Positions 1 through 9,378 of a DNA stretch of 40,339 bases are shown one piece after another; positions within the stretch are counted from its first letter, which is position 1, and each line of letters opens with the position of its first letter. The notes under the pieces were generated by a model, which saw only the letters and a program-made list of their open reading frames with translations, had not been told where the DNA came from and searched no databases. The DNA is taken from assembly GCF_003334815.1 (NCBI RefSeq), contig NZ_QOWO01000034.1, one strand, 5' to 3'. Made by a program: the position numbers and the translations under genes. The DNA comes from Escherichia coli (lineage in GTDB: Bacteria; Pseudomonadota; Gammaproteobacteria; Enterobacterales; Enterobacteriaceae).

Positions 1-160
1 AGCAGGGGATTGACCGGATGGCCGGACGTCACTCCGCCGGGGCACACCGAACAGGCCACGCCGGTGGGGGCACCAATGCGCACCCCGGCTGAACCCTGAA
101 CAATGCTACCGCCATACTGCGTCATGTCGCCCTGACGCGCTGCCGGTTTTCCGCTCATTT
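1..160 (-). CDS. rhsA: Rhs-family protein, N-terminal 53 codons only (gene continues beyond window start)
   Basis: Reverse complement of 1..160 translates from ATG (158..160) as MSGKPAARQGDMTQYGGSIVQGSAGVRIGAPTGVACSVCPGGVTSGHPVNPLL, the conserved Rhs N-terminus; position divergent from yibF matches the K-12 rhsA locus from memory. The specific rhs paralog is an assumption. Confidence 0.75.
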
Positions 161-385
161 CTCATCCTTGTTTTATCGGGTTATTTGTCTGCTGACAGGC
201 GAAACCCTACAGATTTATAAGAAAGCCTGAAGTGAGATATCCATCAGAGTGAAATAATTAGGAAAATATTTATATCACCATGATAAATATGTGATTTATT
301 TGGAAGTAACAAACCATCAACATTTTCTGCCCTTTTTCCCATCACCAGGCCATACTGATATTTTTCCTCGCACAAAGGACTCGGC

Positions 386-994
386 ATGAAACTCGTCGGT
401 AGCTACACCAGCCCGTTTGTACGCAAACTTTCTATTCTGTTGTTAGAAAAGGGCATAACTTTCGAATTTATTAATGAACTGCCCTATAACGCGGACAACG
501 GCGTGGCGCAATTTAACCCGTTAGGAAAAGTGCCGGTGCTGGTGACCGAAGAGGGCGAATGCTGGTTTGATTCGCCGATCATCGCTGAATATATTGAATT
601 AATGAATGTCGCTCCGGCGATGTTGCCGCGCGATCCGCTGGAGTCGTTGCGGGTGCGCAAAATTGAGGCACTGGCGGATGGCATTATGGATGCCGGGCTG
701 GTATCGGTGCGTGAACAGGCGCGTCCAGCGGCGCAGCAGTCTGAAGATGAATTGTTACGCCAGCGGGAGAAAATCAACCGCAGTCTGGATGTGCTGGAAG
801 GATATCTGGTCGATGGCACACTCAAAACCGATACGGTCAATCTGGCGACTATCGCCATTGCCTGTGCCGTCGGATATCTCAATTTCCGCCGCGTTGCGCC
901 AGGTTGGTGTGTCGACCGCCCACACTTAGTCAAACTGGTCGAAAACCTGTTTAGCCGCGAAAGTTTTGCTCGCACCGAACCGCCAAAGGCTTGA
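386..994 (+). CDS. yibF: glutathione S-transferase family protein
   Basis: 202 aa [31 protein letters not shown]..., thioredoxin-like GST N-domain pattern; recognised as YibF. Confidence 0.9.
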
Positions 995-5665: not shown

Positions 5666-5829
5666 TCATCATTTCCACAACGGCTGGCAAATTGTCAGCC
5701 GCTTTTTCAACTATCTCTGTAACCCTTGCCCGTAAATTCGTGATAGCTGTCGTAAAGCTGTTACCGACTGGCGAAGATTTCGCCAGTCACGTCTACCCTT
5801 GTTATACCTCACACCGCAAGGAGACGATC

Positions 5830-7912: not shown

Positions 7913-8236
7913 ATGTTCCTGGACTATTTTGCACTGGGAGTGCTTATTTTTGTATTTCTGGTGATCTTCTATGGGATCATTATTTTACATGATATTCCCT
8001 ACCTGATTGCCAAAAAACGTAATCATCCTCATGCCGACGCCATTCATGTTGCTGGTTGGGTGAGTCTTTTTACGTTACATGTTATCTGGCCGTTTTTGTG
8101 GATTTGGGCCACGCTTTACCGCCCGGAGCGGGGATGGGGAATGCAAAGCCATGATTCATCCGTTATGCAACTGCAACAGCGCATTGCCGGGCTGGAGAAA
8201 CAGCTCGCCGACATCAAATCCTCTTCTGCCGAGTAA
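7913..8236 (+). CDS. yiaW: small inner-membrane protein (DUF3302 family) with C-terminal coiled-coil
   Basis: Track ORF trimmed to ATG at 7913 after gaggga RBS, giving 107 aa [17 protein letters not shown]...; two hydrophobic helices then [18 protein letters not shown]. Confidence 0.8.
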
Positions 8237-8241
8237 TACTT

Positions 8242-9378
8242 ATGGATTTACTGATTATTTTGACCTATGTGGCTTTTGCATGGGCAATGTTTAAGATCTT
8301 CAAAATTCCCGTAAATAAATGGACCATTCCCACAGCGGCCCTGGGTGGAATATTTATTGTCAGCGGTCTAATTCTGTTAATGAACTATAACCATCCGTAT
8401 ACCTTTAAAGCGCAAAAAGCGGTTATTTCTATTCCTGTTGTCCCACAGGTGACTGGTGTGGTGATTGAAGTGACGGATAAGAAAAATACGCTGATTAAAA
8501 AAGGTGAGGTGCTATTTCGACTGGACCCGACGCGTTATCAGGCGCGGGTGGATCGGCTGATGGCGGATATCGTTACCGCAGAACATAAACAGCGGGCGTT
8601 GGGCGCAGAGTTAGATGAGATGGCGGCGAATACTCAGCAGGCAAAGGCCACGCGGGATAAATTCGCTAAAGAGTATCAGCGTTACGCACGTGGCAGCCAG
8701 GCGAAAGTAAACCCGTTTTCAGAACGCGATATCGATGTGGCGCGGCAAAATTATCTGGCGCAGGAAGCCTCCGTGAAGTCATCGGCGGCGGAACAAAAAC
8801 AGATCCAGAGCCAGCTGGATAGCCTGGTGTTGGGTGAACATTCTCAAATCGCCAGCCTGAAAGCACAGCTCGCGGAAGCAAAATATAACCTTGAGCAGAC
8901 GATAGTGCGTGCGCCGAGCGATGGTTATGTGACCCAGGTACTGATTCGTCCGGGTACCTATGCCGCGTCGCTGCCGCTACGTCCGGTGATGGTGTTTATA
9001 CCCGATCAGAAACGACAAATCGTGGCGCAGTTCCGTCAGAACTCCTTGCTGCGACTGGCTCCTGGCGACGATGCGGAAGTGGTGTTTAATGCTCTGCCAG
9101 GTAAGGTATTCAGCGGTAAGCTGGCAGCCATTAGTCCAGCCGTTCCCGGCGGAGCTTATCAGTCGACCGGCACCTTACAGACGTTAAACACAGCGCCGGG
9201 TTCAGATGGCGTTATCGCGACCATTGAACTGGATGAGCACACTGATTTGAGCGCTTTACCAGACGGTATTTACGCCCAGGTGGCGGTTTACTCTGATCAT
9301 TTCAGCCATGTCTCGGTGATGCGCAAAGTGCTATTACGCATGACCAGCTGGGTGCATTACCTTTATCTCGATCATTAA
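8242..9378 (+). CDS. yiaV: membrane-fusion (periplasmic adaptor, HlyD-like) family protein
   Basis: 378 aa; N-terminal TM segment, long coiled-coil-like central region, C-terminal beta-rich region; 5 bp after yiaW stop, implying co-transcription. Confidence 0.85.

Follow-up and report, generated by a model that had tools for sequence, protein, structure and literature searches.

The 5' end of rhsA, its PAAR-like N-terminal segment and a composite rhsA-yibF spacer at the edge of a 40,339-nucleotide stretch of Escherichia coli DNA

The stretch of E. coli DNA analysed here (the window, 40,339 nucleotides in all) opens within the 5' part of rhsA, the gene on which the Rhs family was founded. We consider it highly probable, as a joint explanation, that positions 1-158 are the head of rhsA, that the encoded segment would act as a Tse5-like adaptor, that the spacer towards yibF is composite, and that the promoters would lie where we place them below. 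The sequence-only reading had called an Rhs gene at this edge, and that observation is confirmed; the feature is an ordinary, long-described E. coli locus that was already known. The interval from rhsA to glyS, which is the span of the window, is the one whose duplication through recombination between rhsA and rhsB gave the Rhs family its name (PMC2935791). Beyond correct annotation the significance of the locus is slight. What is added here are refinements, namely a one-repeat PAAR-like head that matches the N-terminal fragment (NT) of Tse5, a composite spacer, and an rhsA that is often damaged in close relatives; these are useful for annotation and not surprising.

Identity and coding start of rhsA

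Positions 1-1100 of the window are 100% identical to E. coli K-12 MG1655 and to many other E. coli genomes, and the counterpart in MG1655 and others is annotated as rhsA, or RHS element core protein, beside yibF and selA. The plus-strand genes that follow yibF in the window are selA and selB, and it is from the sequence identity together with the synteny with yibF-selA-selB that we take the gene to be rhsA. Read on the minus strand from 158 to 1, the DNA translates as MSGKPAARQGDMTQYGGSIVQGSAGVRIGAPTGVACSVCPGGVTSGHPVNPL, starting at an ATG at 158-156 with a Shine-Dalgarno sequence, AAGGA, at 169-165. This 52-residue fragment aligns with model positions 1-52 of the NCBIfam equivalog NF041261 (RHS_core) with an E value of 8e-28, that is, with the N-terminal segment of the model. 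An Rhs N-terminus had been read from the letters in the first 160 bp, on the minus strand, and the translation opens with the residues quoted there; both the complete identity to K-12 and the NF041261 match uphold it, with a length of 158 nt instead of 160, and the divergent arrangement of rhsA and yibF is borne out as well (Table 1).

The GC content of the 158-nt fragment is 0.665. In K-12, the rhsA core has a GC content of 0.616, the tip 0.40, and the adjacent yibA 0.34; a GC-rich core with an AT-rich tip is the classical composition pattern of Rhs genes (PMC2935791).

The window is colinear with MG1655 from rhsA to a point shortly beyond glyS and, over its whole length, differs from it by 12 substitutions in 40,339 positions, with no insertions or deletions; its source is a strain other than MG1655. 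Several further features were seen along the way. An Rfam match to the sok antitoxin RNA (RF01794, 70.1 bits) lies close to the opposite edge of the window, at 40187-40326 on the plus strand. The K-12 IS150 transposase coding sequence runs from 40292, the sok match seems to overlap the IS150 end, and, as the window is colinear with K-12 at IS150, this insertion appears to be present in the source strain as well. Positions 11235-11528, between yiaT and an sgbE/araD-like gene, hold two short pseudogene fragments annotated in K-12, one hypothetical and one of the AraC family.

Table 1. Features at the rhsA edge of the window, with window coordinates
Feature	Position	Strand	Basis
rhsA 5' end, codons 1-52 plus 2 nt	1..158	-	Translation, K-12 identity, NF041261 match; gene exits window edge
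Start of DUF6531 plug, residues 46-52 plus start of codon 53	1..23	-	Pfam
Residues 1-47, putative counterpart of the N-terminal fragment of Tse5; PAAR-like, would dock on the spike	18..158	-	Alignment with Tse5 8cp6_B
Single PAAR-type repeat, residues 2-29, GKPAARQGDMTQYGGSIVQGSAGVRIG	72..155	-	PAAR models and structures, last repeat only
rhs leader common to rhsC, 117 nt; probable rhsA promoter site	159..275	-	108/117 nt identical to K-12 rhsC upstream
Candidate yibF promoter CTGACA-18-TATAAG	192-221	+	Relaxed scan
Candidate rhsA promoter TGGATA-18-TATAAA	243-214	-	Relaxed scan, 9/12 matches
RhsA-element-specific AT-rich DNA, 73 bp, GC about 0.3	276..348		No homology to rhsC or empty site
Ancestral yibF upstream DNA, 37 bp; Shine-Dalgarno AAGGA at 375-379	349..385	+	Homology start in rhsA-free genomes
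Candidate extended -10 TGaTATTTT, in the ancestral 37 bp	356-364	+	Relaxed scan
yibF, glutathione S-transferase	386..994	+	NF007682, E 7e-123; divergent from rhsA

The rhsA-yibF spacer and its promoters

The spacer between rhsA and yibF is composite, as 190 of its 227 bp come from the Rhs element and the other 37 bp are ancestral DNA upstream of yibF. Alignment of the empty site with the K-12 junctions makes positions 1-348 element DNA and leaves 349-385 alone as ancestral. In strain THO-015, which has an empty site, yibF lies 70 bp after yibH and the homology to the window begins at 349; in 2016C-3878 it begins at 386, and an S6 peptidase and fimbrial island stands in place of the element. 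When the empty site is aligned with both K-12 junctions, 33 bp of it are seen to be replaced by the 8250-bp element, which is located between yibH and yibF. The RhsA element is thus of the presence/absence type, its ends being defined by the empty-site strains. The junction spanning positions 1-420 occurs in 3731 of 5426 complete E. coli genomes (about 69%), and about 31% are without it. A second presence/absence difference was noted within the window, at the yiaY-aldB spacer (5666-5829), which is 164 bp long as in K-12; in THO-015, 2016C-3878, and O157:H7 F6321 the position is occupied by a Fic-family gene of 1296 nt.

The part of the spacer next to rhsA is a leader shared with K-12 rhsC, with 92% identity to the rhsC upstream region as far as position 275 and 48% beyond it; the upstream regions of K-12 rhsB and rhsD are unrelated to it. 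The 117-nt leader folds no better than shuffled sequences (z -0.23), and an Rfam scan of positions 1-1000 gave no match. Elsewhere in the window, Rfam places the small RNA ES036 (CssrF) at 21314-21356 on the plus strand, in the ysaA-avtA gap, with 46.1 bits against a gathering threshold of 37.6. The spacer also contains two small open reading frames, a minus-strand one of 47 aa at 244-387 and a plus-strand one of 32 aa at 291-389; no protein family matches either, and both were treated as non-coding.

A search for repeats or a target-site duplication at the ends of the element gave short, chance-level matches only. One 10-bp sequence, TTTATTTGGA, is present at the 3' end of yibH, at the left edge of the element, and again at window positions 294-303, about 45 bp inside the right edge. 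It was considered as a remnant of yibH and rejected, its E value of about 0.1 in a small search making it probably a chance match, and comparison of the spacer with YibH and YiaV at the protein level found no similarity. The yiaW-yiaV pair in the window (7913-9378) is paralogous to yibI-yibH, which flank the far side of the RhsA element, and YiaV and YibH differ very little over their last 60 residues.

The spacer had been described as 225 bp of AT-rich DNA. Its length is 227 bp (159-385), whereas the composition stands, with a GC content of 0.37 against 0.51 for the whole window and 0.41 for the other intergenic stretches. GC content is lowest, in 100-bp windows, at 201-300 (0.28) and 251-350 (0.31). 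The spacer is AT-rich, yet it falls inside the range of the other spacers in the window (0.25-0.61).

That both divergent promoters lie within this spacer, as had been proposed from the sequence, is reasonable but unproven. A scan of 159-385 for the sigma-70 consensus at standard stringency gave no site, and the candidates listed in Table 1 come from a relaxed scan in which none rose above chance in a shuffle control. Of the rhsA candidate, the rhsC leader keeps the -10 hexamer TATAAA but not the -35. For rhsA and yibF, no mapped start sites were found in the literature, including the supplements of the Cappable-seq and SMRT-Cappable-seq studies, and the titles and abstracts of the H-NS literature hold nothing on the rhsA-yibF spacer. 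A BglJ-RcsB site has been predicted for rhsA and rhsB (PMC3950696). We would place the rhsA promoter most likely in the leader shared with rhsC; that of yibF would lie at the element junction or span it.

With the element, 190 bp of its AT-rich DNA take the place of the native yibH-yibF spacer and end 37 bp short of the yibF start codon; as a consequence, the control of yibF, and possibly of selAB, may differ between strains with and without rhsA. One possible rewiring would be silencing or activation shared with rhsA through an AT-rich bidirectional region. Taken jointly with a separate idea, that the one-repeat PAAR-like head discussed below works in some way other than as a standard spike cap, we regard this as a long shot. 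The mostly element-derived origin of the spacer is nonetheless relevant to studies of yibF or selAB expression across strains.

The gene beyond position 1 and its state in related genomes

K-12 RhsA, to which the window is identical over the visible part, matches NF041261 over residues 1-1247 with 2647 bits against a curated cut-off of 2000, and it contains YD repeats, an Rhs_assc_core at residues 1170-1247, and a C-terminal tip of the Ntox34 family (PF15606, E 2.6e-43). Past rhsA, K-12 carries in turn yibA, a tip fragment that is orphaned, yibG, a further fragment, an Imm57 gene with a frameshift, and yibH. The candidate for immunity in K-12-type relatives is yibA. In 1757 genomes it stands with the Ntox34 tip, and roughly another 1385 have yibA but not that tip. 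The tip at the rhsA locus of strain EC93 is of the RhsB type and comes with yhhH, with an orphan yibA after them, and in O157:H7 the rhsA core is joined to a yibG-linked tip. Such tip variation is described by the C-terminal displacement model (PMC2935791). The suggestion that the DNA past position 1 would be variable accessory content holds up well, as tips and immunity genes differ among K-12-type strains, EC93, and O157:H7, and the element as a whole is missing from nearly a third of the genomes.

Two side observations concern this region. A genomic SELEX peak of a minor sigma holoenzyme lies inside K-12 rhsA near its 3' end, at U00096.2 position 3764054 (PMC5493296), between yibF and yibA, and could mark an internal promoter for yibA. 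The PGAP labels at the rhsA locus vary among 'rhsA', 'rhsB', and 'polymorphic toxin type 34 domain-containing protein'; the 'rhsB'-labelled EC93 gene is the one with an RhsB-type tip, and the 'type 34' label is found on internally deleted or frameshifted copies. The names appear to follow the tip or the state of the gene and not the locus, so that names alone mislead.

The state of rhsA was followed in nine of the nearest genomes, which are near-identical to the window over its first 25 kb; the collection contains no exact match, and the best 25-kb matches have about two mismatches, an estimate from bit scores of 46156, where a perfect match would give about 46169. An intact rhsA of 4134 nt, with the Ntox34 tip and yibA, is present in four of them (LR-33, VG48B2, EC416, and BHUCD01), and in the other five the gene is deleted, frameshifted, or tip-swapped. 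The copy in CP8-3_Sichuan is a pseudogene that lacks nt 204-2247; that in CFSAN061772 lacks nt 310-2864 in frame, with 522 aa left; HH35 and PO06021 have a common deletion of nt 2002-2543 and are frameshifted; and in CM2010-0578/1 the Ntox34 tip and yibA were lost through a 453-bp repeat, and the gene is frameshifted. These amount to at least four different structural changes among nine near-identical genomes. The changes may reflect real recombination between repeats or assembly collapse of the repeated core, and rhs tips are known to have been mis-assembled in one published EDL933 genome (PMC7216683). The rhs cores within a single genome are almost the same in sequence. Extension upstream of position 1, which the sequence-only reading had expected to continue as an Rhs open reading frame, was carried out in these relatives, and the expectation held in the four intact genomes and failed in the other five.

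With regard to which gene the fragment belongs to and in what state, two alternatives to an intact rhsA have to be weighed. The fragment might come from rhsB or rhsC, or from a chimeric join, given that its 158 nt are identical to K-12 rhsB at 154 positions (97%) and to rhsC at 152 (96%), with rhsD further away at 130, and given that some genomes bear the PGAP label 'rhsB' at this locus. However, the leader and spacer are contiguous with the coding fragment and identical to the rhsA-yibF junction of thousands of genomes, the unrelated rhsB upstream region and the end of rhsC homology at 275 do not fit a paralogue, and the 'rhsB' labels appear to track the type of tip, as in EC93, and not the locus. 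An rhsB or rhsC identity was rejected on synteny and the leader alignment, which place the fragment at the rhsA locus, and we regard it as very improbable. Much closer to the preferred reading is the alternative that an rhsA damaged in the source strain by internal deletion, frameshift, or tip loss has left these 158 nt as its remnant head. The non-intact copies in five of nine near-identical genomes speak for it, and the source strain cannot be assumed to have an intact gene; the 4134-nt gene that is intact in the other four and in K-12, the chance that some of the deletions are collapses of the rhs core of the kind seen in EDL933, and the lack of any defect in the part within the window speak against it. 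We give damage a real chance, somewhat short of even, and from this small sample of nine, an intact and a damaged gene in the source strain would stand at roughly even odds. As the accessory content beyond the window varies among near-identical strains, it should be read from the source contig and not assumed.

The N-terminal segment and its comparison with known systems

Within the rhsA head, residues 2-29 resemble the last part of PAAR models. They align with positions 51-69 of the 70 in Pfam PF05488 (i-E 0.0084) and with positions 68-94 of the 94 in NF033420, and among PDB PAAR structures they match 9rce_c (E 0.0031) and 4jiv_D (E 0.027). Membership in the PAAR family is not reached, as there is one repeat and the scores are below the thresholds of PF05488 and NF033420, and the PAAR match is gone when RhsA residues 1-1172 are scanned. 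After the repeat, a Cys/Gly-rich linker extends to residue 47. DUF6531 covers residues 46-123 of K-12 RhsA (Pfam, E 2.2e-17), with RHS repeats next. Because three canonical repeats cannot fit before a DUF6531 that begins at residue 46, we call the segment "PAAR-like" and not a "PAAR domain".

The best match to a solved structure is Pseudomonas aeruginosa Tse5, in which RhsA residues 48-186 align with residue 1 onward of 8cp6_B (E 6e-18). Tse5 is cleaved between K47 and P48, its 5-kDa NT is a PAAR-like domain that is required for secretion, and its DUF6531 forms the N-terminal plug of the shell (PMC10684867); a second paper speaks of a cryptic PAAR-like domain in Tse5 (PMC7376260). Residues 1-47 of RhsA would thus be the whole equivalent of the fragment that is cut off in Tse5, with the opening residues of the plug after it.

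It is solely by analogy with Tse5 that RhsA may be regarded as a type VI effector. In such a scheme, residues 1-47 would be a short N-terminal adaptor that docks on the VgrG spike of a type VI secretion system, and E. coli RhsA may be cleaved at a predicted site between H47 and P48. The DUF6531 plug would close the YD-repeat shell, a cage of about 1200 residues that, in K-12-type relatives, would enclose the Ntox34 C-terminal toxin. Judging from Tse5 and from reviews, the tip would be freed by an aspartyl protease motif, and immunity would be provided by yibA, the next gene. According to a review that summarises Ma et al. 2017 (PMC6730261), the tip of Z5014 is antibacterial and its immunity protein neutralises it, and the published Z5014 carried PF15606, the same Ntox34 family as the K-12 RhsA tip (PMC7216683). 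No type VI genes are found within the 40,339-nt window. To our knowledge, E. coli K-12 has no type VI secretion system, so that delivery of RhsA may be absent there and the gene may be silent cargo in K-12-like strains.

Alternatively, the short N-terminus may not be for type VI export at all, and in strains that have no type VI system RhsA may act by another route or inside the producer, for example through a link with group 2 capsule export or in a toxin/antitoxin-like manner. Its sole PAAR repeat, with scores under the family thresholds, would be in keeping with this, as would the lack of a vgrG gene linked to rhsA, rhsB, or rhsC, whose exporting VgrG, if there is one, has been called unclear (PMC7216683). 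In the same direction, an rhsA mutant with less group 2 capsule and cross-linking of RhsA to KpsD are reported in summary form (PMC2935791). However, Tse5, with the same architecture, has been proven to be a type VI effector, and its secretion requires the NT (PMC10684867), and tips of the family were antibacterial in type VI-dependent assays, again as summarised in a review (PMC6730261). We consider a role outside type VI export unlikely and prefer the Tse5-like adaptor as the reading of residues 1-47.

Compared with known systems, the locus is closest to the RhsA element of K-12 described by the Hill laboratory (clade rhsABCF), from which the visible part and its neighbours show no difference; in near relatives of the source strain, rhsA is intact, deleted, or tip-swapped. 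The K-12 ybfA-rhsC region shares with it the coding start and the leader up to position 275, and its flanking genes differ. Like canonical PAAR proteins (4jiv_D, 4jiw_D; PF05488, NF033420), RhsA has in residues 2-29 approximately one repeat that includes the PAAR motif; unlike them, with their three repeats in about 90 residues, it has a single one and scores 17.6 bits against the NF033420 cut-off of 124. The likeness to Tse5 (PA2684) lies in a PAAR-like N-terminal fragment of about 47 residues followed by a DUF6531 plug and a YD shell, with sequence homology that starts at residue 48 of both proteins. In contrast to Tse5, the residue before the predicted cut in RhsA is a histidine in place of a lysine, the tip is Ntox34 and not a pore former, and rhsA has no vgrG neighbour (PMC7216683); for RhsA, cleavage and export are proposed by analogy.
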